Source: a virus
DNA: 64,000 nucleotides
IMG/VR virus record: IMGVR_UViG_3300034073_002131
Span: 1 to 64,000 of that record
Strand: one strand, 5' to 3'
Each line of letters starts with the position of its first letter. Positions within the stretch are counted from its first letter, which is position 1. Under the pieces are notes generated by a model. That model saw only the letters and a program-made list of their open reading frames with translations. It was not told where the DNA came from and ran no database searches. Of this stretch, positions 1 through 12,093 are shown piece by piece. The translations under genes and the position numbers were made by a program.

Positions 1-83
1 GCCCAGGTGGTGAAATTGGTAGACACGCTGGTCTTAGAAGCCAGTGCTTCGGCGTGACGGTTCGAGTCCGTCCCAGGGCACCA
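1..83 (+). tRNA. tRNA-Leu(TAG)
   Basis: Cloverleaf, loop CT-TAG-AA, long variable arm, GGTTCGAGTCC, encoded ACCA. Confidence 0.95.
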
Positions 84-179
84 TACTAGAGCATATTGGC
101 ACAGTAATATTTTAGCTCGGTGAAAGCCTTGTGCGGAAACCCAGATGCTATAGCTTTACTCTAATATGTTCTAATATGG
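81..179 (+). ncRNA. Stem-closed structured RNA cassette A1 (unknown)
   Basis: ccatactagagcatattgg pairs with ctaatatgttctaatatgg (G-U compatible); internal gcaca/tgtgc stem and ggt-gaaa-gcc hairpin; no ORF. Confidence 0.6.
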
Positions 180-183
180 TAGA

Positions 184-280
184 TAGTCAATGTTAAAAAT
201 GGGTATTCAAAGTATCCGTTCCAAAAGGGTGCAAATCCTGATTAAGCATAGAGCTTGGTAAAAACAACATAGACTAGCCA
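184..280 (+). ncRNA. tRNA-like RNA with rearranged cloverleaf ending GCCA
   Basis: tagtcaatgtt/aacatagacta terminal stem with GCCA overhang; three internal hairpins, one T-loop-like (gg-tgcaaat-cc). Confidence 0.55.
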
Positions 281-465
281 TAGTTAAGTATTTTGTTCGT
301 CCTAGGTGAAATAAACAGGACATTGCAGCCCAGAGAAATAAGGGTACCCGGCCGGTATATCCCTAAAGCGGGCTGAAGTTAATCGTAGCCGATCCTTAGC
401 GGGATCATATGGTAGGAAGATTAACTCATGCGCGAGCAGGCAGTAAGCAAAATACTTTACTATGG
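278..465 (+). ncRNA. Stem-closed multibranched RNA cassette A2 (unknown)
   Basis: ccatagttaagtattttgtt / agcaaaatactttactatgg closing stem; internal helices gtcct/aggac, cagccc/gggctg, agttaatc/gattaact, gatcct/gggatc. Confidence 0.65.
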
Positions 466-550
466 ATGCGTAGCCAAACGGTTGACGGCAGCGGGCTGTA
501 AACTCGTGACATAAGAAACGCTGGTGGTTCGAATCCATCCGCATCCACCA
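464..550 (+). tRNA. tRNA-Tyr(GTA)
   Basis: Cloverleaf, CT-GTA-AA loop, long variable arm, ACCA. Confidence 0.93.
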
Positions 551-646
551 TATTGAAGCACATTAGAATCTGTAAAAAGATCAGGGCTGGTACACCACAT
601 ACCTCTCACAGAAAGTATGTATAGACCACAATGTGTTTCAATATGG
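548..646 (+). ncRNA. Stem-closed structured RNA cassette A3 (unknown)
   Basis: ccatattgaagcacatt / aatgtgtttcaatatgg 17-bp stem; internal acatac/gtatgt. Confidence 0.6.
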
Positions 647-968
647 CTGTTGACTGGCCCGATATATGGCACTCTAAAGCCTGAAGTGGGAAAACTTATT
701 TCTAGTCAACATCCGTAATTGCGCTGCTCACGCTGAACCTATAAACTCTAAACTGGTGACTAGGACGGGGTCGTACCCCATAACGATATTAGGCTGAATA
801 ACGATAACAGCTAAGTCTAGAGACCGCAGGGATGAGCACCTGCATATAATACATCCCGCAACGCTTAAATAGTCGTATCCCTAGACTATACTGCGCACTA
901 TGCGAAAAAAGTTACGAGTGATGGTGGACTACGTAATTGGACACTGGAGACCTGCGGGCCGTCGCCCA
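645..968 (+). ncRNA. Cluster of unassigned structured RNA modules
   Basis: ggctgttgactgg/ctagtcaacatcc stem (645-714); hairpins gggg-tcgta-cccc, gcagg-gatgagca-cctgc, tagtc..gacta; gtgatggt/gccgtcgc stem followed by CCA (918-968). Confidence 0.45.
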
Positions 969-1008
969 ATAGTAACAAGACACTATGAATCCACTTTAGG
1001 GAGTGGGG

Positions 1009-1096
1009 CCATAGTTCAACTCATACTGATTCGCTGGTGACTGCCAGAGATAGCTCTTTCAGGCTGAAGAATGGGTTTAAGTGAGTTGAACTATGG
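1009..1096 (+). ncRNA. Stem-closed multibranched RNA cassette A5 (unknown)
   Basis: ccatagttcaactcat / gtgagttgaactatgg stem; internal attc/gaat enclosing three small hairpins. Confidence 0.6.
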
Positions 1097-1112
1097 TTTT
1101 TTGGAGATAGCA

Positions 1113-1439
1113 ATGAGTCGTACTCTAAAAGATAAACCGCATACTATACAGTATCCAGAAGATCACTACTTGTATGATACTGTTCGTGTAGATACTGATC
1201 TAGGCTCAAGAATTGGATTTCGGTACATACAGGTTGCGGGCAAAAAGACTAAAAAACGTAGAAACTACTGTCACTTCCGGTGGTATAGCACAACTCCTAG
1301 TTGGTGGACTCGTATTACAATGACTCGTCCGCAACGACGTAAGAGTCGTATGTGGGAACAAGTCGTAACTAGAGCTGTAGACTTAGAGCTACAAGATCCT
1401 CCACTGCTGGGACGTAAACCACACATATATTATTATTAA
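1113..1439 (+). CDS. Basic hypothetical phage protein
   Basis: GGAG RBS then ATG at 1113; Arg/Lys-rich, PSWW..RP.RR motif. Confidence 0.7.
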   Translation: MSRTLKDKPHTIQYPEDHYLYDTVRVDTDLGSRIGFRYIQVAGKKTKKRRNYCHFRWYSTTPSWWTRITMTRPQRRKSRMWEQVVTRAVDLELQDPPLLGRKPHIYYY

Positions 1440-1511
1440 GGGCTGCGCGCAGGGACGCAAAGGTGATTTGCAATCATTTTCCGCTGGGATCGTTACCCAG
1501 GCGGTCCACCA
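1440..1511 (+). tRNA. tRNA-Ala(TGC), atypical
   Basis: Acceptor gggctgc/gcggtcc with G3-U70, A73, CCA; loop TT-TGC-AA; short D arm, T loop ATCGTTA. Confidence 0.75.
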
Positions 1512-1517
1512 TACAAT

Positions 1518-1594
1518 GCAGGGAATAGTGTTAGTGGCAAGCACGTCTGTCTGTGAAACAGAAAGTTAGGGATCGAAACCCGTTCACCTGCCCA
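1518..1594 (+). tRNA. tRNA-His(GTG)
   Basis: CT-GTG-AA loop, G-1:C73, CCA; bulged A in acceptor stem, T loop ATCGAAA. Confidence 0.8.
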
Positions 1595-1660
1595 GCCAAA
1601 TAAGATTTGGGAACCAACCCAAACAGCCCCGCAAGGGAACTTAAACACACGGAGATGTGT

Positions 1661-1858
1661 ATGATGGCATATAACGGATTAGACATTATTTCAGTCGATG
1701 TTCCGCTAATGCTTAGATTAATGGAATTTGCTAGAGAAGATGCTACTTCCGATAAGGATTTACACTTTGTAGCAGAGCACCTAATCAGGCTAATGCAAAC
1801 AAATACTCTCCTCACTATGAAACACTATGACGCAATAGTTGATAGAGGGGGTTTTTAA
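1661..1858 (+). CDS. Small hypothetical protein (VDVPL..RL.E..RED family)
   Basis: ORF with GGAG RBS; paralogous to the next ORF. Confidence 0.7.
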   Translation: MMAYNGLDIISVDVPLMLRLMEFAREDATSDKDLHFVAEHLIRLMQTNTLLTMKHYDAIVDRGGF

Positions 1859-2061
1859 TGGGCGATAAATACTATAAGTTCGTAGAGATTGAGGTTAGCC
1901 CTAAACTCATGAAAAAGCTCTTAGAGCACGTAAAAGACCCTAAGGTAACGCAAGATCATATAAACTATATGATGGAAAACTTGATGTGGTTAAGTAAACA
2001 CGACGAGTGCCTTACCCTAGATGAATATGAAGTAATCACAGAGAAACCCATAGTTAGCTAA
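1858..2061 (+). CDS. Small hypothetical protein, paralog of 1661-1858
   Basis: TAATG-coupled ORF; aligns by eye with the upstream protein. Confidence 0.7.
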   Translation: MGDKYYKFVEIEVSPKLMKKLLEHVKDPKVTQDHINYMMENLMWLSKHDECLTLDEYEVITEKPIVS

Positions 2062-2139
2062 CTGTGGTCAACAAGAAAGCTTGCCGGCTTTCTTTGTTGT
2101 TTTTAAACTCCAAAATAAAAATAAGAACAGGAGAACAAA

Positions 2140-2898
2140 ATGGCAGAATCAATCACACCTGCAGGCATGATGATGAGTGGTGGCGACGGTCTTTTCGGAG
2201 GCGGCGGTCTTATTGGCGGTCTTATCCTAGGCAGCTTGCTACGAAACAACGGCAATCTATTCGGAGGAGACGGCAACGTTGCTGGAGCGGTTCTTCGTAA
2301 CCCGCCCGAGCAGACTCAAGCTAATATGAGTTTAATGAGTGCTATCGGTCAAGTAGACAAAGCCGTAGCTGTTGGTACAGCAGCCATGGAAGCTTCACAG
2401 GCTGCACAAAGCGCAGCCCTAGTTGCAGAAATTGGTCGTACAACTGGCAACCTTGTTAGCCGCGTCGATGCTACTACTGCAGCAGTTAATGCTGGTACTA
2501 TGGTTCTTGCTCAACAACTAAATGGTGTTGAGAAGTCAATCATGGAAAACCGCTATGAGCTTAGCAAAGATATTCAAGCTGATGGCGACAAAACCCGTGC
2601 CCTAATTACTCAACAGTATGAGGCCACACTAAATCGTCAACTTACAGATGCTAACGCAGCAATTATTGCCCTACAAAGTAAACTAGATAATGGTGCGGTC
2701 GCTCGCGGTGTTGAAGTTACTACAACTAACAACATCAATCAGATGCAACAGCAACAGCAACAGCAAGCACAGTGGGGTCAGCTCTACAACGTGCTCTGGG
2801 GCTTAGCTCAAAACATTCGTAGTAACAACGAAGCAATTAATGTTGGCAGCGGCACACTTACTGCTAATCCAACAAACACAAATACAAATATTAGATAA
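2140..2898 (+). CDS. Gly-rich N-terminal, coiled-coil, Q/N-rich C-terminal protein
   Basis: AGGAG RBS; GGGGLIGGLILGSLL hydrophobic segment; poly-Q tract. Confidence 0.8.
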   Translation: MAESITPAGMMMSGGDGLFGGGGLIGGLILGSLLRNNGNLFGGDGNVAGAVLRNPPEQTQANMSLMSAIGQVDKAVAVGTAAMEASQAAQSAALVAEIGRTTGNLVSRVDATTAAVNAGTMVLAQQLNGVEKSIMENRYELSKDIQADGDKTRALITQQYEATLNRQLTDANAAIIALQSKLDNGAVARGVEVTTTNNINQMQQQQQQQAQWGQLYNVLWGLAQNIRSNNEAINVGSGTLTANPTNTNTNIR

Positions 2899-2915
2899 TC
2901 TCTAATTAACTGTTA

Positions 2916-2947
2916 GCCCCCCGTCCAAAAGATGCGGGGGCACTTTT
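2916..2947 (+). terminator. Intrinsic terminator-like hairpin
   Basis: gcccccc..ggggc stem followed by cttt tract. Confidence 0.6.
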
Positions 2948-2952
2948 ACTAG

Positions 2953-3540
<588 letters not shown>

Positions 3541-3541
3541 A

Positions 3542-3754
3542 ATGGAACAAGCAATAAGAATTTATCCACATAATTGCACACAACAACAACAAGACTTTAT
3601 TAGACTAGAAGAATCAGTAGATACTCTAGCAGCAGCAAGCCTAGCCCTAGCAAGCCAAGGTGCACACGCATATCAACAATTTATTGATGCGCGTCAAAAT
3701 TTTACACAACTAGTTCGTGCCATGGGCAAGAACTACAGATATGTAGAAATTTAA
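3542..3754 (+). CDS. Hypothetical protein
   Basis: ORF adjacent to collagen-like gene. Confidence 0.65.
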   Translation: MEQAIRIYPHNCTQQQQDFIRLEESVDTLAAASLALASQGAHAYQQFIDARQNFTQLVRAMGKNYRYVEI

Positions 3755-3756
3755 TA

Positions 3757-3785
3757 TTGATTTTACTAGTATAGCCGTGTATAAT
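3757..3785 (+). promoter_or_regulatory. Sigma70-type promoter
   Basis: TTGATT-17 nt-TATAAT. Confidence 0.7.
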
Positions 3786-3816
3786 AATTACTTCGGTGTT
3801 TGAAAAAAGAGAAAAA

Positions 3817-4002
3817 ATGACAAAACAAGAAGCACTACTAATACTTCAAGCTCTGCCGGACGACACCGAAGTAACCATTATTTTAGGTAAACACTCCCAA
3901 CCAAATCGCTGGCAGATGCCGTACACAATATCCTATCCACCAACACCTTATTGGCAAGACCCTTATAAGGTAACTTGTACTAGCTATGAAACCAAAACTT
4001 AA
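3817..4002 (+). CDS. Hypothetical protein
   Basis: ORF downstream of promoter. Confidence 0.55.
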   Translation: MTKQEALLILQALPDDTEVTIILGKHSQPNRWQMPYTISYPPTPYWQDPYKVTCTSYETKT

Positions 4003-4108
4003 ACCTCGTAATCCCTATGTGGCACTAGCACACAAACGACGTGCTGGCACACATACCAAAACCCACAAGCAGGTTCGTGGTCAACTCAATCGCAAACTGG
4101 ATGCATAA
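3986..4108 (+). CDS. Small basic protein (KPRNPYVA..RRAGTH), 40 aa
   Basis: Read directly, not in ORF track; stop is U8-A9-A10 of tRNA-Lys. Confidence 0.6.
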   Translation: MKPKLKPRNPYVALAHKRRAGTHTKTHKQVRGQLNRKLDA

Positions 4109-4170
4109 CTCAACGGTAGAGTAACCGGCTTTTAACCGGTAAGCTGTGGGTTCGATTCCCTCTGCATCCA
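4099..4170 (+). tRNA. tRNA-Lys(TTT)
   Basis: Cloverleaf, CT-TTT-AA loop; followed by CTA rather than CCA. Confidence 0.92.
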
Positions 4171-4233
4171 CTATATTAAAACACATTACTAAGAGTCCAG
4201 GTTCATAGCGTGGCATAGTGTGTTCCAATATGG
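4171..4233 (+). ncRNA. Stem-closed cassette A6 (unknown)
   Basis: ctatattaaaacacatt / agtgtgttccaatatgg stem, similar to A1 and A3. Confidence 0.55.
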
Positions 4234-4332
4234 AAGGGTTGCTAATATTGGCCTTAGGGCGAGCCTTATAAACTCGTAAGCACTGTCTAGATAAGGCAGT
4301 TAATGTGGGTTCGATTCCCACCCCTTCTACCA
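4232..4332 (+). tRNA. tRNA with TAT (Ile) anticodon and long variable arm
   Basis: ggaaggg/cccttct acceptor, CT-TAT-AA loop, ctgtct/aggcag variable helix, GGTTCGATTCC, ACCA. Confidence 0.8.
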
Positions 4333-4337
4333 TCAAT

Positions 4338-4431
4338 AGTGAGTTGGCTGAGCGGCTTAAGGCAGCGGTTTGCTAAACCGTCGATTCGGGTCACCCCGGG
4401 TCCGTGGGTTCGAATCCCACACTCACTGCCA
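4338..4431 (+). tRNA. tRNA-Ser(GCT)
   Basis: Cloverleaf, long variable arm, GCCA. Confidence 0.95.
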
Positions 4432-4442
4432 CGGAGAATACT

Positions 4443-4748
4443 ATGAATTACTCTACAGAAACGCTTATAGCAGCACTAGATGCTATAATTATTAAAGCAA
4501 AAAATGTTAAAAGGGGCGATAGCGTTAGCTGGAATTCAAGCGGCGGTACTGCTCGTGGCAAAGTCACCAAAGTAATTACAGATGGCGAAGAACAAGTTCC
4601 GGGCAGTAGTTTTAAGATTACCGGAACGCCTAATGATCCCGGTGCCTTAATTAGAGTCTATCGCGAAGAGGATGGCAAGTACAAGCCTACAGATACCATT
4701 GTAGGACATAAAGTAAAAACTCTAACAAAAATTCCTGCACTGGATTAA
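4443..4748 (+). CDS. Tudor/SH3-like protein (DUF2945/HVA1-like)
   Basis: GDSVSWNSSGGTARGKV and VGHKVKTL motifs. Confidence 0.65.
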   Translation: MNYSTETLIAALDAIIIKAKNVKRGDSVSWNSSGGTARGKVTKVITDGEEQVPGSSFKITGTPNDPGALIRVYREEDGKYKPTDTIVGHKVKTLTKIPALD

Positions 4749-4750
4749 CC

Positions 4751-4903
4751 ATGCCTTGCTATAAATGTTCAAATGGTAAGTATAAATATGGTCAACGTGG
4801 CAACTGCCAGTTTGACACCTTAGAGGCTTGTAAAGCTGCTGAAGCAGCTATTCATGCTCGTGAGTCCGAAAAACCTAAAAAAGAACAAAAACCTAAAAAA
4901 TAA
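4751..4903 (+). CDS. Small Cys-containing basic protein (MPCYKCSNGKYKYG), 50 aa
   Basis: Read directly, not in ORF track. Confidence 0.6.
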   Translation: MPCYKCSNGKYKYGQRGNCQFDTLEACKAAEAAIHARESEKPKKEQKPKK

Positions 4904-4905
4904 AT

Positions 4906-4982
4906 GCACCTATCGTCTAGTGGCCTAGGACAACTCCCTTTCACGGAGTAGATCGCGGGTTCGAATCCCGCTAGGTGTGCCA
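4906..4982 (+). tRNA. tRNA-Glu(TTC)
   Basis: Cloverleaf, CT-TTC-AC loop, GCCA. Confidence 0.94.
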
Positions 4983-4986
4983 TATA

Positions 4987-5065
4987 CTGAGTGTATTGTC
5001 AGCCCGGTTAGACGGCCGAGCTTGGAACTCGGAGGCCGCAGGTTCAAATCCTGCCACTCAGACCA
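4987..5065 (+). tRNA. tRNA-Pro(TGG)
   Basis: Cloverleaf, CT-TGG-AA loop, C1-G72, ACCA. Confidence 0.93.
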
Positions 5066-5070
5066 GATAC

Positions 5071-5146
5071 GCCGCTTTAGCTGATGTGGTCATAGCATGG
5101 GTCTGAAGAGCCCGGGAACCTGGTTCGATCCCAGGAGGCGGTACCA
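5071..5146 (+). tRNA. tRNA-Phe(GAA)
   Basis: Cloverleaf, CT-GAA-GA loop, ACCA. Confidence 0.93.
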
Positions 5147-5150
5147 CTAC

Positions 5151-5225
5151 ACCGGATTAGCTCAGTGGTAGAGCAATGTTTTGATAAAGCAGAGGTCACT
5201 GGTTCAATCCCAGTATCCGGTACCA
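5151..5225 (+). tRNA. tRNA-Ile(GAT)
   Basis: Cloverleaf, TT-GAT-AA loop, ACCA. Confidence 0.92.
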
Positions 5226-5226
5226 A

Positions 5227-5343
5227 TTTGAGTTAGCTATAGGACTCAAACCACTATAGCCGTTTACTATCACCGACAAAGATAGCGTCATCCATAACAG
5301 ACGATACGGGTTATGCCGGACAGGTAACCGGCTTTTTCTTTTT
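5227..5343 (+). ncRNA. Double-pseudoknot RNA ending in a terminator-like hairpin
   Basis: tttgagt/actcaaa with gctatag/ctatagc; cgtc/gacg with cataac/gttatg; gccgg/ccggc plus T-run. Confidence 0.5.
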
Positions 5344-5369
5344 ACACACACAACACACAAGGTCTTAAC

Positions 5370-5609
5370 ATGCCGACTAAAAATCCCTATGAAATCCGCA
5401 CTGAGTTGCTGCAACTTGCTCAGGGCTATCTTCAACAACAGTTTGAAGCTAACAAACAATTTGCAGAACAAACCTTTCACCAAATGGTAGAACTTGGTAA
5501 AGTTCAGCCTGAAGATTGGGCTAAGCATATGCCCAAGTTTTACGACTTTAAAGACATTTTAGAGAAAGCCAAAGAACTATACGGCTTTGTAAATAATGAA
5601 AGTCGCTGA
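5370..5609 (+). CDS. Conserved phage protein (KNPYEIR.ELL family)
   Basis: ORF with CA-rich leader and AAGG RBS. Confidence 0.75.
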   Translation: MPTKNPYEIRTELLQLAQGYLQQQFEANKQFAEQTFHQMVELGKVQPEDWAKHMPKFYDFKDILEKAKELYGFVNNESR

Positions 5610-5754
5610 TATGTGGCAGCGCGTCCTGGAATTTGTTCGTCCGTACACGTTCGAGGATTATGTCAAAGAATACGGTCCTAAAGATCATAAAGAACTAGAA
5701 GAACTAGAAAAACGTTGGCTAAGTACTAGTAACTGGTTCAATCGTTCACAATAA
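5596..5754 (+). CDS. Small protein, DUF3563-like (52 aa)
   Basis: Read directly: MKVADMWQRVLEFVRPYTFEDYV..D..ELEELEKRW. Confidence 0.5.
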   Translation: MKVADMWQRVLEFVRPYTFEDYVKEYGPKDHKELEELEKRWLSTSNWFNRSQ

Positions 5755-5761
5755 CAATTTT

Positions 5762-5835
5762 CGCGGGATAGAGTAAAGGCAATTCAGGAGTCTCATAAGC
5801 TCCAGATGGGGGTTCGATTCCCTCTCCCGCAACCA
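5762..5835 (+). tRNA. tRNA-fMet(CAT), initiator type
   Basis: C1-A72 mismatch, CT-CAT-AA loop, ACCA. Confidence 0.88.
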
Positions 5836-5845
5836 AGGACCACAT

Positions 5846-6304
5846 ATGAGTGCAACAATTAAAAACTTAGAAAGTGCCCTAGCTGGTGAATCTATGGCAC
5901 ATATTAAATACTTATACTTTGCAAAACTTGCTGAAGAACAAGGCTTTTGGGAAGTAGCAGACCACTTCTACTGGACTGCAGATCAGGAGATTAAACACGC
6001 TTGGGGTCATCTTGAGTTGCTGATCGGCAAGCCTAATGTAGTAGAGTCTCTTGAGATGGCAATTGCTGGCGAAACTTATGAGTATACACAAATGTATCCT
6101 GAGTTTAAGCAGATTGCCACGGCTGAGCAAAATCTAAAAGTTGCCGCAGAGTTCAAAGAGCAAGAAGCAGAATCGCAAGATCATGCTCAGCAATTTGCTG
6201 AAATTCTACAAAAAGCAGAAAAGCGATTTGCAGCCCTTGCTAAAGTCGAACAAAAGCACGCTGAAGCCTATAAACAAATTCTTAAGGGAGTAGACCATGA
6301 GTGA
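5846..6304 (+). CDS. Rubrerythrin (ferritin-like diiron domain)
   Basis: NLESALAGESMAH, EIKH, GETYEY..MYP, E..H diiron motifs. Confidence 0.9.
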   Translation: MSATIKNLESALAGESMAHIKYLYFAKLAEEQGFWEVADHFYWTADQEIKHAWGHLELLIGKPNVVESLEMAIAGETYEYTQMYPEFKQIATAEQNLKVAAEFKEQEAESQDHAQQFAEILQKAEKRFAALAKVEQKHAEAYKQILKGVDHE

Positions 6305-6440
6305 AGAACACGTTTGTGTAGTTTGCGGCTGGGTTTACGAAGGCAGCGAGCTTGACGAAGGCATTCACTGGAACGACCTTGAGCATGATTTTGAGTGTCC
6401 AGAGTGTGGCGTAGGTAAAAGCGATTTTGAAGTAGTTTAA
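6297..6440 (+). CDS. Rubredoxin (47 aa)
   Basis: Read directly: CVVCGWVY...W.DL..DF.CPECGVGKSDF. Confidence 0.9.
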   Translation: MSEEHVCVVCGWVYEGSELDEGIHWNDLEHDFECPECGVGKSDFEVV

Positions 6441-6451
6441 ACCTACTAATC

Positions 6452-6525
6452 CTCCCTATAGTGTAATGGCAGCATACCAGTCTCCAAAACTGTTGGTTGC
6501 GGTTCGAGTCCGTATGGGGAGGCCA
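6452..6525 (+). tRNA. tRNA-Trp(CCA)
   Basis: CT-CCA-AA loop, G73, CCA. Confidence 0.92.
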
Positions 6526-6539
6526 AGAAAATTTTTGTC

Positions 6540-6568
6540 TTGACCCTAAATCGCAGATTTGCTATAAT
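6540..6568 (+). promoter_or_regulatory. Sigma70-type promoter
   Basis: TTGACC-17 nt-TATAAT with extended TG. Confidence 0.8.
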
Positions 6569-6597
6569 ATTATTTCTGTGACAGTTTAGGAATCCAA

Positions 6598-6813
6598 ATG
6601 CAAGCATTAAATCAAGTTACTAGTCCTATGTTCTTGTTGCCTGCCTATGGCCGCCAGTATCGAACCCGTGAGCAAGTGCTCCGCGACTGGCAAGGGGGTA
6701 AAGACTTTCAAATTGAGGGTGGCCCCTACTGCTCGATTCGCGACCTTGACCTAATGCACAAGCAGTTTCAGAATATCTATATCCTGTACGACAGGGGAAC
6801 TGTACTAGTATAA
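6598..6813 (+). CDS. Hypothetical protein (PAYGR.Y...DW..GKDF family)
   Basis: ORF with AGGA RBS downstream of promoter. Confidence 0.7.
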   Translation: MQALNQVTSPMFLLPAYGRQYRTREQVLRDWQGGKDFQIEGGPYCSIRDLDLMHKQFQNIYILYDRGTVLV

Positions 6814-6818
6814 TTTAA

Positions 6819-6904
6819 GCCCCTGTGGTGGAATAGGTAGACACAAGGGACTTAAAATCCCTCGCTGAAAATGCGTGCCGGTTCGACTCCGGCCGGGGGC
6901 ACCA
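6819..6904 (+). tRNA. tRNA-Leu(TAA)
   Basis: CT-TAA-AA loop, long variable arm, ACCA. Confidence 0.95.
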
Positions 6905-6919
6905 CAGTTAGGAACTTAA

Positions 6920-7117
6920 ATGAAATACCCGTATGCTACGCTTAATATGTGTCTACGCAGTATGCTAGGCTCGCAAGAACTAGTAGACCGGTGGTACGAA
7001 TCGCCTAATCGTGCGTTTGATATGCAAACTCCGCTTCAAATGCTTGAAAGTGGTGACGAACCCCGTAGAACAGTATATAAATATATCCTAGCACAACTTA
7101 ACTATATTCCACAGTAG
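6920..7117 (+). CDS. Xre/MbcA/ParS antitoxin C-terminal-like domain protein
   Basis: LGSQELVDRWYESPNRAFDMQTPLQML pattern resembles DUF2384. Confidence 0.6.
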   Translation: MKYPYATLNMCLRSMLGSQELVDRWYESPNRAFDMQTPLQMLESGDEPRRTVYKYILAQLNYIPQ

Positions 7118-7182
7118 CTCAGCGGTAGAGCAGTTAACTGTTAATTAATTGGTCGTTGGTTCGATCCCAGCCTGTGGAGCCA
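7108..7182 (+). tRNA. tRNA-Asn(GTT)
   Basis: CT-GTT-AA loop, GCCA. Confidence 0.94.
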
Positions 7183-7184
7183 AG

Positions 7185-7258
7185 TGGGGTATAGTGAAAC
7201 GGTATCACACAGGATTTTGATTCCCATATTCTTGGTTCGACTCCAAGTACCCCTGCCA
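7185..7258 (+). tRNA. tRNA-Gln(TTG)
   Basis: TT-TTG-AT loop, GCCA. Confidence 0.92.
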
Positions 7259-7264
7259 CAAATC

Positions 7265-7735
7265 ATGAAACAATTCGACCTAGAAGAAATCAAAGAGTTT
7301 ATTAGTGCTCAAAGCCCAGACACCAAGATATACTTAGGCGCAGATAGTGAGCGTGTAAGTGGTGGTGATTGTTGGATGGCTGAATACTACTTAGCCGTCG
7401 TAGTACATCTAGAAGGCAAGCACGGCTGTAAAATATTTGGTCAGATTACTCGTGAGCGAGACTACGATCAGCGACAGGATAAACCTGCACTCCGACTTAT
7501 GGGTGAAGTTTATAAAGTAGCCGAACTATTTAATGAACTAAGCGACGTCTTACAAGACAGATATGTAGAAGTACACCTAGATATTAATCCAGATGATCGT
7601 TACGCAAGTTCACAAGTAGTATCGCAAGCTATTGGATATATTCGCGGTACGTGCAACATAGAAGCACAAGTTAAACCTCAAGCATTTGCAGCAAGTTACG
7701 CAGCAGACCGACTAAAATTTATTCTTTCAAACTAA
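7265..7735 (+). CDS. RNase H-like YkuK (DUF458) family protein
   Basis: IYLGADS, RL..EV, EVHLDINP, KP.AFAAS..AD motifs. Confidence 0.8.
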   Translation: MKQFDLEEIKEFISAQSPDTKIYLGADSERVSGGDCWMAEYYLAVVVHLEGKHGCKIFGQITRERDYDQRQDKPALRLMGEVYKVAELFNELSDVLQDRYVEVHLDINPDDRYASSQVVSQAIGYIRGTCNIEAQVKPQAFAASYAADRLKFILSN

Positions 7736-7736
7736 A

Positions 7737-7958
7737 ATGACTAAAGACCGCTTTGATCTTGAACAAGAAATCCTAGATTGCTGGCATATCACTGATGATC
7801 TACAGACTATTATGGAAACAGATAGTCTTAATCTTAGCGACGATGTGCATAATCTCCTACTTGGACTTAAGACTCTTTATCACCTTAAGTTTGAGCGTAC
7901 TTTTGCAACATTTGAGCAGTTAGTTGCCCAACGCAAGCTAGACCAACGAATTATGTGA
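7737..7958 (+). CDS. Conserved phage protein (DRFDLEQ.I..CW family)
   Basis: ORF; stop lies inside tRNA-Cys. Confidence 0.7.
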   Translation: MTKDRFDLEQEILDCWHITDDLQTIMETDSLNLSDDVHNLLLGLKTLYHLKFERTFATFEQLVAQRKLDQRIM

Positions 7959-8031
7959 CGGTGTTGCTGAACGGCTAGGCTGCAGTCTGCAAAACTGTGT
8001 TATGTGGGTTCAAGTCCCACCCGTCACTCCA
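7955..8031 (+). tRNA. tRNA-Cys(GCA)
   Basis: CT-GCA-AA loop, U73, CCA. Confidence 0.92.
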
Positions 8032-8035
8032 CACT

Positions 8036-8110
8036 GCCCCTTTAGCTCAGTGGTAGAGCAGCCGCCTTGTAAGCGGCAGGTCATCAGTTCGAATCCGATA
8101 GGGGGCACCA
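8036..8110 (+). tRNA. tRNA-Thr(TGT)
   Basis: CT-TGT-AA loop, ACCA. Confidence 0.94.
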
Positions 8111-8122
8111 CTAGGTATATGT

Positions 8123-8509
8123 ATGAACGAAGAACTTAAAGATTCCCTAAGTGAAATTGGCCGGGCATGGAACGAGGCTATGGATGCTATTGAACAAGCT
8201 AGCGAACGGTACTGGAATAGTTTAACTAAAGAACAACAGCTTGATGCGTTCTGTGCAGTATGCCGCCGCATCTACAAAGGTGACATTGAGGACAAAGGCA
8301 CTTACAGGTATGTCCTATACAACGTATTTGGTTTTGGTCCTGAAGCATACGCACAAGCACAAATGGCAGGATACCTGACTATTCATAACAGCATTTTTGA
8401 TGCTGATCACGATGACAACTTGCTAACTAAATTTGCTGAGTTTTGTGGGCTTGATGAGTCAAAAGTTAGTGAGTTTTGGAATCAGCATTCTTGGGCACAA
8501 AACCCATAA
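8123..8509 (+). CDS. Conserved hypothetical phage protein
   Basis: GTYRYVLY..FGFGP.AY motif. Confidence 0.75.
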   Translation: MNEELKDSLSEIGRAWNEAMDAIEQASERYWNSLTKEQQLDAFCAVCRRIYKGDIEDKGTYRYVLYNVFGFGPEAYAQAQMAGYLTIHNSIFDADHDDNLLTKFAEFCGLDESKVSEFWNQHSWAQNP

Positions 8510-8833
8510 TATGATCGTATGAAGTTGACCCAAAGGTGCTTTGGACGCGGGTTCGACTCCCGCCTGGTCCACCATAGATACATTACACCATTAACGCCAC
8601 GGGGTTATCTAGAGCTGCAGCTCGAAAAGCACACTGTGAGAAGTGCAGATAACAGTAGTGTATCTTTGATGGGCCAGTCATGGTTTCGACAGGGCAATGA
8701 GTAGCAATACAGACGATCCGACACAGATAGTCGTTAAAAGTAAACAAAAACAAACGCAAACGATGAAACGTTCGCATTAGCCGCCTAAACTCGGCTTAGG
8801 GTTCCAGGTTATCCTCGTAACAGAAAACCTGGA
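8510..8833 (+). ncRNA. ssrA: Circularly permuted (two-piece) tmRNA, tag ANDETFALAA
   Basis: Acceptor piece (GGAC-gcggg-TTCGACT-cccgc-ctggtcc-ACCA, ends 8574) precedes the coding piece (gggccag..GGTTTCGAC, starts 8671); G3-U70; tag frame 8756-8788. Confidence 0.9.
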
Positions 8834-8890
8834 CTTAAATGGCCATTTGGCATTTTTATTAACAATTCTTGCTCAATCGAGGAGAATAAG

Positions 8891-9331
8891 ATGACACTAA
8901 AAGATATTAATAAATACTTTCTAGGCTTTGATGAAGCTCAGGATCGCATTAACAAATTGCATACGCAAATGATTGCTAAGGCAAATGTTAACTATCCGCC
9001 TTATAATGTTCGTAAAACAGACGATCATAAATATCTCTTAGAACTAGCCGTTGCTGGGTTTAGGGAAAGTGAGATTAGTCTGGAAGTATCAAAAGGTGAA
9101 CTTGTAATTACTGCTCAAAAGTCTGAGCAGGAACAAGATAGTGAATATAAAGGCTGGATTCATCAAGGTATTGCCTACAGAGGCTTTACTCGTACCTTTT
9201 TCCTAGATAATCAGTATGAAGTCCTACATGCCGAGCTTAAAGACGGCTTGTTAAAAGTATACCTAGGCTTGCAAGAAACCATGAAGCCTAAGCGTATTCC
9301 TATTGGTGGACAACAGCATCTTGAACTTTAG
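8891..9331 (+). CDS. Small heat-shock protein Hsp20 (IbpA-like)
   Basis: NYPPYN, ELAVAGF, HQGIA.R.F.R.F, LKDGLL motifs. Confidence 0.92.
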   Translation: MTLKDINKYFLGFDEAQDRINKLHTQMIAKANVNYPPYNVRKTDDHKYLLELAVAGFRESEISLEVSKGELVITAQKSEQEQDSEYKGWIHQGIAYRGFTRTFFLDNQYEVLHAELKDGLLKVYLGLQETMKPKRIPIGGQQHLEL

Positions 9332-9419
9332 AAGCGTGGTCGAGTGGTTTAAGGCACCGGTCTTGAAAACCGACGATTCCGTAAGGGGTCCGTGAGTTCG
9401 AATCTCACCGCTTCTGCCA
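9330..9419 (+). tRNA. tRNA-Ser(TGA)
   Basis: CT-TGA-AA loop, long variable arm, GCCA. Confidence 0.95.
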
Positions 9420-9423
9420 ACAC

Positions 9424-9451
9424 AGAGGGTGCCCAGCACCCTCTATTTTTT
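9424..9451 (+). terminator. Intrinsic terminator
   Basis: agagggtgc-cca-gcaccctct plus T-run. Confidence 0.7.
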
Positions 9452-9587
9452 AAACTTGCGCCAATGAACCAAACAAAAATTCCGCCCAGTACTGGCTATA
9501 TCATCCCTATAGCAACTAAAATGTTCCTAAATTGGACTGTGGATGAGTGGGGTTTCTGGAATGTAGAAGTGCTAGTTTTAGACTAAT

Positions 9588-9770
9588 ATGATTTCACCCT
9601 GTATTAAAATATGTAAGCTAGACCCTAAACTGCAGATATGTATTGGCTGTTGGAGAACTAGGGAAGAAATTCAGGACTGGACAACCTACACAGATGAACA
9701 GCGACAGAAAATAGTAAATAGTCTTGCTCAACGATGGGCTAAACTAGCGGGTATAGTGTTTAACGGTTAG
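9588..9770 (+). CDS. DUF1289 Cys-rich (predicted Fe-S) protein
   Basis: SPCIKIC......C.GC.RT..EI..W. Confidence 0.85.
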   Translation: MISPCIKICKLDPKLQICIGCWRTREEIQDWTTYTDEQRQKIVNSLAQRWAKLAGIVFNG

Positions 9771-9824
9771 CACGCCAGTCTTCCAAACTCGAAGTGAGGA
9801 GTTCGAATCTCCCTACCCGCTCCA
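9747..9824 (+). tRNA. tRNA-Gly(TCC)
   Basis: CT-TCC-AA loop, U73, CCA. Confidence 0.93.
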
Positions 9825-10393
9825 TGAAAAAAATTATACTTTCCCTATTCGACTACAGCGGTAATTGGCCCAAGTACTACCGCGACAGCGGCCTATACGA
9901 TGTATATCAAGTAGACCTTAAACTTGGCCTAGATATACTTGATATAAATCCTGGTGAACTGCCACAGCCTATACACGGTATCTTAGCCGCTCCACCTTGC
10001 ACAGACTTTGCTAGTAGTGGAGCGCAATACTGGACGCAAAAAGATAGGGACGGTCGTACCCAACAAAGCCTACAACTAGTAGATAAAACCTTAGAGATTA
10101 TAAGTTATCACGAACCCAAATGGTGGGTAATTGAAAATCCTGTAGGCAGACTTGCAAAATTACGTCCTGAACTAGGTACCCCTTGGTATTTTCAGCCGTG
10201 GTGGTTTGGTGACGCCTACACCAAGAAAACAGGTTTGTGGGGCACATTTAATCGTGACCTACCACAGAGTCCAGTCGATCCCGACCCTAAATCGCCAATA
10301 ATGCGGTTAGGCGGTAAATCAGAACGAACCAAAGAATTGCGAAGCATGACTCCGCTTGGGTTTGCTCTTGCATTCTACTTAGCAAATCCCTAG
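9824..10393 (+). CDS. DNA cytosine-C5 methyltransferase (small phage type)
   Basis: LSLF..SG motif I, PPC catalytic motif, ENP motif; ATG overlaps the tRNA CCA. Confidence 0.8.
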   Translation: MKKIILSLFDYSGNWPKYYRDSGLYDVYQVDLKLGLDILDINPGELPQPIHGILAAPPCTDFASSGAQYWTQKDRDGRTQQSLQLVDKTLEIISYHEPKWWVIENPVGRLAKLRPELGTPWYFQPWWFGDAYTKKTGLWGTFNRDLPQSPVDPDPKSPIMRLGGKSERTKELRSMTPLGFALAFYLANP

Positions 10394-10466
10394 TACCTTA
10401 GCTCAGCGGTAGAGCGTCTCGTTTACACCGAGAGGGTCGGGGGTTCGAACCCCTCAGGTACTACCA
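10392..10466 (+). tRNA. tRNA-Val(TAC)
   Basis: TT-TAC-AC loop, ACCA. Confidence 0.94.
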
Positions 10467-10469
10467 AGC

Positions 10470-10757
10470 ATGCAACCCAAAGACACAGTACAAACTATCA
10501 ACTTTAAAGGTTATACGAATAACAAGTGCGAGTTCTTTCCTTGCCATACAGGAGTTAAAAAAGAATTTAACTGTTTATTTTGTTATTGCCCCCTAGTATT
10601 CCTAAAATGCCCCGGACCGTACAAAGTATTCCAAGACAAAAATGGCATTACCAGAAAAGATTGTAGTGCTTGTATCCTACCACATAACGGTATAGAACAA
10701 TCTTGGCGGTTTATTCAAGACTGGTTGGAGCGTCCCGAACCTTGGGATTATAAGTAA
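10470..10757 (+). CDS. Cysteine-rich small domain protein
   Basis: N..CEFFPCH....FNCLFCYCPL...KDCS.C..PH. Confidence 0.85.
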   Translation: MQPKDTVQTINFKGYTNNKCEFFPCHTGVKKEFNCLFCYCPLVFLKCPGPYKVFQDKNGITRKDCSACILPHNGIEQSWRFIQDWLERPEPWDYK

Positions 10758-10774
10758 AGTATAAAATTATTAAC

Positions 10775-10803
10775 TTGAACTGGCTTGGTATCTGTGATAT
10801 AAT
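10775..10803 (+). promoter_or_regulatory. Sigma70-type promoter
   Basis: TTGAAC-17 nt-TATAAT, extended TG. Confidence 0.75.
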
Positions 10804-10848
10804 ATTTATTATTACAGATACCAAGCCATTTATATTTAAGGCACAGAA

Positions 10849-11382
10849 ATGAACGTCTTTTTTTGTTCGGACCATCACTTTCATCACCAAAATATCTTAA
10901 AGTTTCTTCGTGATGACGGTACGCCATTACGTACATTTAGTGGCATCAATCATATGCACGAGCATATTATTGCTCAGCACAACAGTGTAGTAAAGCCTGA
11001 GGATAAAGTATATTTCTTGGGCGATGTTTGCATGACTAAGAATGCAGCCGGACTAGAAATTTTAGGTCGTCTTAATGGCACAAAAATATTAATTCGTGGT
11101 AATCATGACGAATGCAAGCTAGCACAGTACGCACAGTACTTTGATGATGTTCGTGGTGTGTGCCACAGGTACGGTGTAGTAATGACTCATGTGCCTATAC
11201 ATCCAGAAAGCCTAGATCGCTGGGGTACAAATCTACACGGACACCTACACTACCGGCGCGTTCTGTTACCAAACGGCCACCCAGATCCCAGATACATTAA
11301 TGTAAGCATGGAGTGCCTAGACAACTATACTCCACTTAGCCTAGACGAACTAAATAAACGGATTACAAAGAATGCAAAATAA
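10849..11382 (+). CDS. Calcineurin-like metallophosphoesterase
   Basis: DHH, LGD, GNHD, HGHLH motifs. Confidence 0.9.
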   Translation: MNVFFCSDHHFHHQNILKFLRDDGTPLRTFSGINHMHEHIIAQHNSVVKPEDKVYFLGDVCMTKNAAGLEILGRLNGTKILIRGNHDECKLAQYAQYFDDVRGVCHRYGVVMTHVPIHPESLDRWGTNLHGHLHYRRVLLPNGHPDPRYINVSMECLDNYTPLSLDELNKRITKNAK

Positions 11383-11566
11383 AAGCTGGCCGTGGCCAAA
11401 GAGCTCAGAAACCATAACTAATACTAATGCACAAAATACTGTCGTATACAGTCAAGTACCTGTAGGCAAACAAAACCTACTTACACTAAAAGATCCGGGT
11501 TGGATTGTTGGGGTATTCATTGGACTACTACTTTTCCTGCCACTCCTATACGCAGCATTTATGTAA
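11372..11566 (+). CDS. Small membrane protein
   Basis: C-terminal hydrophobic helix. Confidence 0.55.
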   Translation: MQNKSWPWPKSSETITNTNAQNTVVYSQVPVGKQNLLTLKDPGWIVGVFIGLLLFLPLLYAAFM

Positions 11567-11573
11567 CATATAC

Positions 11574-11651
11574 GGGCCTCTAGCTCACGGAGGTTAGAGC
11601 AACCGACTCATAATCGGTAGGTACTGGGTTCGACTCCCAGGGGGCCCACCA
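11574..11651 (+). tRNA. tRNA(CAT), probably Ile2 (lysidine type)
   Basis: gggcc acceptor and cga-ctcataa-tcg arm resemble bacterial tRNA-Ile2; elongator Met not excluded. Confidence 0.85.
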
Positions 11652-11656
11652 ATACT

Positions 11657-11902
11657 ATGAATAATATACCTTTACTATCACAAATTATTGAATTAGCTCA
11701 AGACGGGGAGATTAACGATCCTATTGACTGGGGCATGCTAAGTGTAGATGAAAACAGTGCCTACTTGCTAATTGCAAATGGGCTAGTAGACCTGTTTGGC
11801 TACCCAGAAACCGAACGTGAAATGTTGATTCTAGCAACATTGGTACGAACTACGGTAGAAAACTTTACCCTAAATCTGAAATTATTGGGAGATCCAAGTT
11901 GA
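11657..11902 (+). CDS. Hypothetical protein
   Basis: ORF track; co-oriented gene run. Confidence 0.7.
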   Translation: MNNIPLLSQIIELAQDGEINDPIDWGMLSVDENSAYLLIANGLVDLFGYPETEREMLILATLVRTTVENFTLNLKLLGDPS

Positions 11903-12093
11903 AAAAATATGTAGTAGCTTGTTATTTCGGCTACGCGAATGATGTAGAACAATGTATTGTACAAGCAGATAACGAATTTGACGCCGTAGTAGACTTTTTA
12001 CAAACTAAACCTCCAGGAATTAATGATCTTGATGAACTCTTAGAGTGGTGTTGGGATCAAGAAATGATTATTAACTTTATTGAAATTAACTAA
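11899..12093 (+). CDS. Hypothetical protein
   Basis: Overlapping TTG start with GGAG RBS. Confidence 0.6.
   Translation: MKKYVVACYFGYANDVEQCIVQADNEFDAVVDFLQTKPPGINDLDELLEWCWDQEMIINFIEIN

Follow-up and report, generated by a model that had tools for sequence, protein, structure and literature searches.

A circularly permuted tmRNA of betaproteobacterial type in the tRNA array of an uncultured T5-like phage, with a spacer hairpin that appears inherited and exchangeable

tmRNA is an RNA that frees stalled ribosomes. The betaproteobacterial two-piece tmRNA was reportedly described by Sharkady and Williams in 2004. Two-piece tmRNAs have also been published from phages, including the OM43 phage Melnitz, pelagimyophages, phiCbK-like Caulobacter phages and others (Buchholz et al. 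2022, PMC9004378). According to that source, two-piece genes make up 53 of 133 unique phage tmRNA structures predicted by ARAGORN, mostly from aquatic phages. A tmRNA database of 2025 is stated to hold 79 phage sequences (PMC11915505). One-piece tmRNAs are on record from mycobacteriophages of the Bxz1 group and from Bacillus phage G, along with an RNA in DS6A that has the tRNA-like domain only (PMC4131195). The gene discussed here is a further member of a kind already known in phages.

This gene was found in a stretch of 64,000 nucleotides, called the window below, which is the first 64 kb of the 98,028-bp IMG/VR record IMGVR_UViG_3300034073_002131. The record has direct terminal repeats and a completeness rating of 100%. 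The phage DNA polymerase has its top identity, 48.9%, to Vibrio phage Thalassa and relatives, which we take to be T5-like (Demerecviridae); the carrier is an uncultured T5-like phage, and the tmRNA gene lies inside an array of tRNA genes and small ORFs. ARAGORN finds 19 tRNA genes within the first 12 kb, with the small ORFs interleaved. Three further stretches of the array resemble tRNA genes but were missed by ARAGORN: 1441-1510, to the eye a tRNA-Ala(UGC)-like sequence that has G3-U70 and an unusual D-arm, is not matched by Rfam, and relatives carry something else at that place; 1519-1591 has an Rfam tRNA match of 29.8 bits and is absent from the related record G002; and 4232-4329 has an Rfam tRNA match of 39.4 bits and a long extra arm. 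The array also holds genes for rubrerythrin and rubredoxin (5846-6440) and, directly behind the tmRNA, for Hsp20 (8891-9331). The locus is composed of the following parts.

8123..8509, + strand: upstream ORF of 128 aa (ORF list), stopping 3 nt short of the Pa helix
8513..8574, + strand: acceptor (3') piece, placed by the RF04321 start, the RF01850 span, anchored extraction and pairing; its 5' end is putative
8513-8518, + strand: Pa 5' strand GATCGT, paired with ACGATC at 8713-8718
8537-8543, + strand: Pb 5' strand TGCTTTG, paired with CAGGGCA at 8690-8696
8547-8563, + strand: T-arm (anchored extraction)
8564-8570, + strand: acceptor 3' strand CTGGTCC, paired with GGGCCAG at 8671-8677
8571 and 8572-8574, + strand: discriminator A, then the encoded CCA (anchored extraction)
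8575..8670, + strand: intervening segment (IVS, the spacer) of 96 nt, seen in folds and presumably removed on maturation
8671..8858, + strand: coding (5') piece, from the Rfam alignment, pairing and the precursor fold; its 3' end is the Rfam model end
8671-8677, + strand: acceptor 5' strand GGGCCAG, with G3 opposite T (G3-U70)
8678-8689, + strand: linker holding GGTTTCGA at 8682-8689 (Rfam alignment, pairing)
8690-8696, + strand: Pb 3' strand CAGGGCA (pairing)
8713-8718, + strand: Pa 3' strand ACGATC (pairing)
8719-8735, + strand: small hairpin of the coding piece (Rfam alignment, precursor fold)
8756..8788, + strand: tag frame GCA..TAA, encoding ANDETFALAA and a stop (ARAGORN)
8803..8858, + strand: 3' hairpins, TCCAGGTT..AACCTGGA and then a weak terminal hairpin with a T-run (Rfam model positions 270-331)
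8891..9331, + strand: Hsp20 small heat-shock gene, outside the tmRNA and given as context (Pfam HSP20 at 51 bits, ORF list)

The 128-aa upstream ORF had no match in a Pfam search. A promoter and terminator scan of 8000-9400, in which the counts were at chance level, called no sigma-70-like site on the + strand upstream of the tmRNA and did not call the terminal hairpin of 8803..8858. No riboswitch was found at the locus by an Rfam search over 1-12000 with E up to 1.

The identity of the gene is clear. ARAGORN calls a permuted tmRNA at 8482-8879 with the tag ANDETFALAA. The Rfam model RF01850 (beta_tmRNA) matches 8462-8858 at 143 bits against a cut-off of 84 (E 1e-43), over model positions 1-331 of 331, and RF04321 (tmRNA_permuted) matches from 8513 at 126.3 bits (cut-off 47), covering its positions 1-213 of 213. 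With ARAGORN and two Rfam models far over threshold, the call is not a chance match. The 3' half, with T-arm, acceptor strand and CCA (8572-8574), is encoded upstream of the 5' half, which starts with the 5' G at 8671, both on one strand. The alanine identity set is complete, with a 7-bp acceptor stem carrying G3-U70, a discriminator A and CCA, and so is the tag frame, with an Ala resume codon, a hydrophobic end of the ALAA type and a stop. For the precursor 8511-8860 the fold energy is -102.6 kcal/mol (z -3.29), a value reached by 0 of 100 shuffles, and in this fold the acceptor stem and the spacer stem are coaxial. An initial annotation, made from the letters of the window, had proposed a two-piece tmRNA with a tag of betaproteobacterial style here. 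The permuted ARAGORN call and the scores of 143 bits (RF01850, over the full model) and 126 bits (RF04321) bear out both the two-piece form and the type. The positions it had assigned to the T-arm, acceptor, CCA, GGTTTCGA, helices, tag and spacer are all correct; the G3-U70 determinant and the agggca/tgcttt and acgatc/gatcgt helices are present in the pairing, and its tag frame at 8756-8788 agrees with ARAGORN. The gene is thus a phage-borne circularly permuted tmRNA of betaproteobacterial type, with alanine identity set and tag frame intact.

The likeness to the betaproteobacterial two-piece tmRNA, as modelled by RF01850, covers the gene order, the break point, the acceptor and T arm, Pa and Pb, a tag of the ANDExFAxAA type, the 3' hairpins and a spacer hairpin directly after (C)CA. 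There are also differences from the chromosomal genes of the beta type. The window gene resides on a phage and scores 143 bits with RF01850, compared with 169-296 bits for three chromosomal genes, and its spacer is 96 nt long and branched whereas the chromosomal spacers measure 25-43 nt. Moreover, the exact tag of the window was seen in bacteria only in one-piece genes (at least 118, among the 120 matches listed). With the phage genes of Buchholz et al. it shares a permuted ssrA carried without SmpB and presumably served by host factors (PMC9004378). The tmRNA of Melnitz, however, is described there as being of alphaproteobacterial type and located behind a glutamine riboswitch, while the window gene is of the beta type and has no riboswitch (PMC9004378). 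The RNAs of the Bxz1 group, phage G and DS6A are likewise ribosome-rescue RNAs encoded by phages, but according to PMC4131195 they are one-piece or tagless, whereas the window tmRNA is permuted and has a full tag. No T5-like phage occurs within 32 of the 53 'Permuted' rows of Table S1 in PMC9004378; the titles and abstracts returned by a literature search contain no description of a two-piece tmRNA in T5-like phages or in DLP6, and neither 'ANDETFALAA' nor 'Phage' appears in the supplement text of PMC11915505.

The same tag followed by a stop is encoded at 34 IMG/VR loci, and 29 of these 34 have a permuted tmRNA with this tag according to ARAGORN. Among the remaining five, contig ends truncate L027 and L028, the twins L008 and L019 score 75.5 bits with RF04321, and Rfam finds no match in L033. 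RF01850 scores 110-143 bits in four related records. Two of these four, G002 and G004, are 84-85% identical to the window across its first 1,700 bases and have the tmRNA at the same position, between tRNA-Cys/Thr and tRNA-Ser/Gly.

Covariation could be studied in a comparison set of 14 phage and 3 bacterial sequences, all 17 of them distinct. In helix Pb, 116 of 119 cells are paired. Sliding the partner by 1-3 bases lowers this to 41-69 of 119, and single positions show as many as four pair types. Pb played no role in locating the genes. The acceptor and T-stem did, and their pairing counts are high by construction because both were used in this way. Helix Pa appears at equal offsets in the versions GATCGT/ACGATC, AGTTGT/ACAACT, GACTGT/ACAGTC and GGTTGT/GCAACC, and the alanine identity, including G3-U70, is retained in 17 of the 17 sequences. 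This covariation supports the helices that are predicted to join the two pieces. The tag itself is written in nine synonymous nucleotide versions among the 34 viral loci and the window, and the full frame of Ala resume codon, ALAA end and stop is kept in 29 of 29 permuted relatives; the synonymous variants alone are no proof of selection, since the sample was gathered by a pattern demanding this peptide.

It is worth asking whether such an RNA has to be a working rescuer at all. A search for SmpB gave 0 matches in the whole 98-kb phage genome, while the control search was positive in 10 of 14 genomes; the absence that the initial annotation had noted for the window therefore holds for the genome. 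A phage without its own SmpB could in principle use the RNA as a decoy that soaks up the host SmpB or blocks host trans-translation, as with DS6A, where inhibition of this type has been described (PMC4131195, PMC11915505, each for the part of the text consulted). We give this idea very little chance, for a decoy would need neither the tag frame, which persists in every permuted relative and in all nine synonymous spellings, nor the helices of the coding piece, which covary. Passive carriage of a decaying bacterial gene copy with no role in infection is extremely improbable in our view. The missing promoter call in the scan of 8000-9400 would agree with decay, but the identity elements are all intact, changes across the two pieces are compensatory, the gene occupies the same place between tRNA-Thr and tRNA-Ser in G002 and G004 at 84-85% identity, and the search of bacterial genomes gave no near-identical gene and no copy of the spacer. 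The gene is better read as a genuine and probably functional phage-borne two-piece tmRNA of the beta type.

Alignment of the window with its close relatives further shows that the gene is a mosaic. The window equals G004 in two parts, the first being the tRNA-like domain and the spacer, where one IVS base differs, and the second the 3' part of the gene starting at the tag. Both Pa strands and the body of the coding piece differ between the two, yet the Pa strands are still complementary within each gene, and the roughly 160 nt between the Pa strands are the same in both. G002 in turn is almost identical to G004 except for the spacer. Contigs of RNA libraries from three studies (X5, X6, X7) cover the tag and the 3' part, 8752-8983, of a relative of the G002/G004 type, and display no RNA ends; most other matches among RNA-library contigs are the conserved T-arm of other organisms.

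The spacer deserves a closer look, as it was the most unusual part of the gene in the initial annotation. In the folds it begins with CCAT paired to ATGG, followed by a 3-nt bulge, an 11-bp stem (AGATACATTAC/GTAGTGTATCT) and, further in, the branch ggttatct/agataac; the 11-bp stem stacks coaxially with the acceptor stem. The mfe is -25.4 (z -2.6). The branched fold of its own (gttatct/agataac) that had been ascribed to the 96-nt spacer is therefore seen, and its cargo is non-coding, a branched hairpin with no protein gene. It ends with TTGAT directly before the mature 5' G. This end is typical of the tmRNA family: YTGAT followed by GGGG is present in seven relatives (L006, L007, L012, L013, L015, L035, L011), and the window has TTGAT followed by GGG.

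Between relatives the spacer changes readily. One relative (L017/G004) has the IVS of the window with one base changed, and G002 has an unrelated 59-nt hairpin at the same place, with almost identical flanks. Phage spacers range from 29 to 161 nt in length, and other closings among the phage relatives are CCA-GAAACATT and CCA-AAAGCAA. A closing stem is not obligatory, because the spacers of L003, L004, L010 and L031 are without one. The longest spacer, the 161-nt one of L012, is open in one frame and is part of a 101-codon ORF running through the tmRNA (567-872, minus strand).

The initial annotation had gone further and read the spacer as one of the hairpin cassettes found between the tRNA genes of this array. 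Five such hairpins, closed by CCATA..TATGG, were considered.

81-179, + strand: hairpin closed by CCATA..TATGG, for comparison (stem scan, folds)
278-465, + strand: the same
548-646, + strand: the same
1009-1096, + strand: the same
4169-4233, + strand: a fifth, looser hairpin (fold)

The inter-tRNA hairpins are certainly real. The first four are the only ungapped CCA..TGG-closed stems of at least 16 bp on the + strand in the whole genome; they have 16-20 bp including G-U pairs and separate RNA genes at the left end. Both G002 and G004 lack precisely the unit 84-280, with the gap lying between two CCATA. In hairpins 548-646 and 1009-1096 their interiors have been exchanged or lost, with the closing stems kept. 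Hairpin 1009-1096 is followed by TTTTTT. These hairpins are possible candidates for processing stalks or released small RNAs. Between them are ORF-free stretches ending in CCA, at 647-1011 (365 nt, GGGGCCA) and 180-281 (about 100 nt, TAGCCA). G002 and G004 keep the 365-nt stretch at about 90% conservation; Rfam gave no match for it, and its fold is not more stable than those of shuffled sequences (z -1.36).

Was the tmRNA then permuted by a cassette, or was its spacer design copied across the array? The case for either starts from the shared ends: the spacer begins with CCATA and ends with ATGG, much as the four tight hairpins do, and both spacer and cassettes retain closing stems while the interiors change in relatives. 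In addition, CCA is followed by TA at 7-8 of the 25 RNA 3' ends of the array, where about 2 are expected from base composition (0.079 per end). This enrichment is real, and a shared processing preference may be behind it. The claim that the spacer is closed by the stem of the cassettes thus stands for the CCATA start and the ATGG end, but not for the rest of the closing, where the spacer has the 3-nt bulge and the TGAT-GGG end of the tmRNA family instead of TATGG. Accordingly, it is absent from the results of the + strand scan for ungapped CCATA-TATGG stems of at least 16 bp. The letters shared by spacer and cassettes come down to TA after an obligatory CCA and AT before an obligatory GG. A start at the encoded CCA of the upstream RNA and an end at the GG of the next is seen in the spacer (8572, 8672) and also in the hairpins before tRNA-Tyr (464) and before the tRNA at 4232.

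The sequences themselves part the two. By local alignment, the spacer compared with cassettes c1-c5 gives z of -1.1 to 0.3, a level that 72-191 of 200 shuffles also reach, whereas c3 against c5 gives 4.7 and c1 against c5 gives 3.1; the spacer is not one of the array's cassettes by sequence likeness. The same design is shared by bacterial beta-type genes and by phage relatives outside this array, and some of them (L161, L002, L007 and L012) likewise have TA after (C)CA. An origin of the spacer from the cassettes, or of the cassettes from the spacer, is on this evidence highly improbable, and the link between the two appears superficial.

The design of the spacer can be followed back to bacteria. 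Three chromosomal genes of the beta type (L161, L162, L163) were found in 151 genomes of one bacterial order, a tally that includes G031, which was left out of use. All three are permuted at the same break point and have a spacer hairpin directly after (C)CA, with spacers of 25, about 43 and 30 nt that are each closed by a stem. Two of the three end with (T)GAT before GGGG, as in TAAGCGCA..TGCGTTTA-GAT followed by GGGG and AAAGT..GCTTT-TGAT followed by GGGG. None of the three carriers (0 of 3) has a standard tmRNA over the cut-off in its genome, and one of the genes is located among housekeeping ORFs. As both the permutation and the spacer design are already present in the chromosomal beta-type genes, they came with the gene, and the proposal that the phage permuted its tmRNA by means of a cassette does not hold: permutation, break point and spacer hairpin are all found in L161, L162 and L163. 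The spacer hairpin would then be an inherited feature of this tmRNA type that in phages has become a longer, freely exchangeable slot, and the window's spacer appears to be the tmRNA family's own variable hairpin and not a copy of the phage's tRNA spacers.

Two other sources were considered. The idea of the spacer as a dispersed mobile element was rejected: its 26-base core occurs at a single IMG/VR locus, the tmRNA of G004, which also speaks against the cassette origin, and at 0 loci in a collection of genomes from 185,579 species. Rfam (E up to 1, over 1-12000) found no known RNA or ribozyme in the spacer or the cassettes. Simple capture of a near-identical host gene including the spacer, the outcome that would have undone the idea of a phage innovation, was not found either, with the core at none of the loci of the 185,579-species collection. 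Recent capture from a sequenced bacterium was also rejected, because a 32-base string of the T-arm and acceptor matches just 2 loci, one a standard tmRNA and the other a permuted gene with another tag (L201). The latter, at 166-593, has the tag VAVNDSKFALAA; its 7.6-kb contig, probably from a phage, had been binned with a Bifidobacterium MAG.

The tag ANDETFALAA is common in bacteria, with at least 118 genes among the 120 matches listed, all of them one-piece, and with carriers that include Paraburkholderia, Burkholderia, Eikenella and Colwellia among those matches. Such a common tag would fit common host proteolysis systems but names no host. As the exact tag is found only in one-piece genes among the bacterial matches listed, the phage RNA may differ in form from that of its host.

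From these features a way of working can be proposed. The gene would be transcribed into one precursor, probably shared with the neighbouring array, in which 8564-8570 and 8671-8677 form the acceptor stem and the 96-nt spacer hairpin is stacked on top. Enzymes of the host that mature tRNAs would cut it twice, RNase P before the 5' G at 8671 and a second cut behind the CCA at 8574, and the spacer would be discarded. This would leave an acceptor piece of about 62 nt and a coding piece of about 188 nt, held together by the acceptor stem, Pb and Pa. The host AlaRS would charge the RNA by way of G3-U70, and the host SmpB would bring it to stalled ribosomes, where translation would resume at GCA and append ANDETFALAA. 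Dependence on the host protein, as the initial annotation expected, is supported by the absence of SmpB from the phage, and its actual use is presumed. A search for an RNase III of the phage, sought as a hint of dsRNA cutting, gave 0 matches each for PF14622 and PF00636. Taken as a whole, we consider it likely that this is a working two-piece tmRNA of betaproteobacterial type in a T5-like phage array, with a spacer that is inherited and exchangeable and not derived from a cassette.

Why a phage would carry such a gene is a more speculative matter, and one arrangement in the array is suggestive. The Hsp20 stop codon (9329-9331) overlaps the first base of tRNA-Ser (9330). It belongs to a set of six array ORFs whose stop falls within the start of the tRNA gene that follows, or spans it: 3986-4108, 6920-7117, 7737-7958, 8891-9331, 9588-9770 and 9794-10393. 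The set comprises Hsp20, DUF1289, an antitoxin domain protein of the Xre/MbcA/ParS type, a DNA methylase and two more ORFs. Pfam supports four of the six, and the arrangement is kept in 3 of the 3 that were checked in G004. Since the stops overlap the tRNA starts, excision of these tRNAs by RNase P would yield non-stop mRNAs, and rescue on ORFs that lose their stop codons in this way is a possible reason for carrying the tmRNA. A bolder version, in which the tmRNA is half of a circuit, freeing the ribosomes on these non-stop mRNAs and tagging those early proteins for destruction, we regard as unlikely; if true, it would link tRNA maturation to a timed shut-off of early proteins.

The beta type of permuted tmRNA is also found in two cultured phages with GenBank entries.

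L198, ON615601.1, 115440-118577: tmRNA site of Synechococcus phage BUCT-ZZ01, annotated there as hypothetical proteins or nothing
L199, KU682439.2, 101332-104399: tmRNA site of Stenotrophomonas phage DLP_6, annotated there as hypothetical proteins or nothing

BUCT-ZZ01 scores 94.5 bits and has the tag ANDETFSMALAA, and DLP_6 scores 103.7 bits and has the tag ANDDSFAPMAIAA; a tRNA with the anticodon CTA lies near the tmRNA of BUCT-ZZ01. The tmRNA annotation is missing at these sites in GenBank ON615601 and KU682439.

With this gene, a T5-like phage group of freshwater type joins the known carriers of two-piece tmRNA. It means that the beta type circulates in unrelated phages: one is T5-like, one is a cyanophage of the Kyanoviridae, and one infects Stenotrophomonas. 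As the bacterial genes with this tag among the matches listed are all one-piece, the permuted form appears to travel with phages. The points of interest are modest ones: a spacer that can be exchanged, the Pa mosaic with its compensating changes, and a link between the tmRNA and ORFs whose stops would be lost on tRNA excision. The window, G004 and G002 together represent a natural experiment, with near-identical genes in which spacers and helix strands have been swapped, and they could reveal what the spacer hairpin is needed for.
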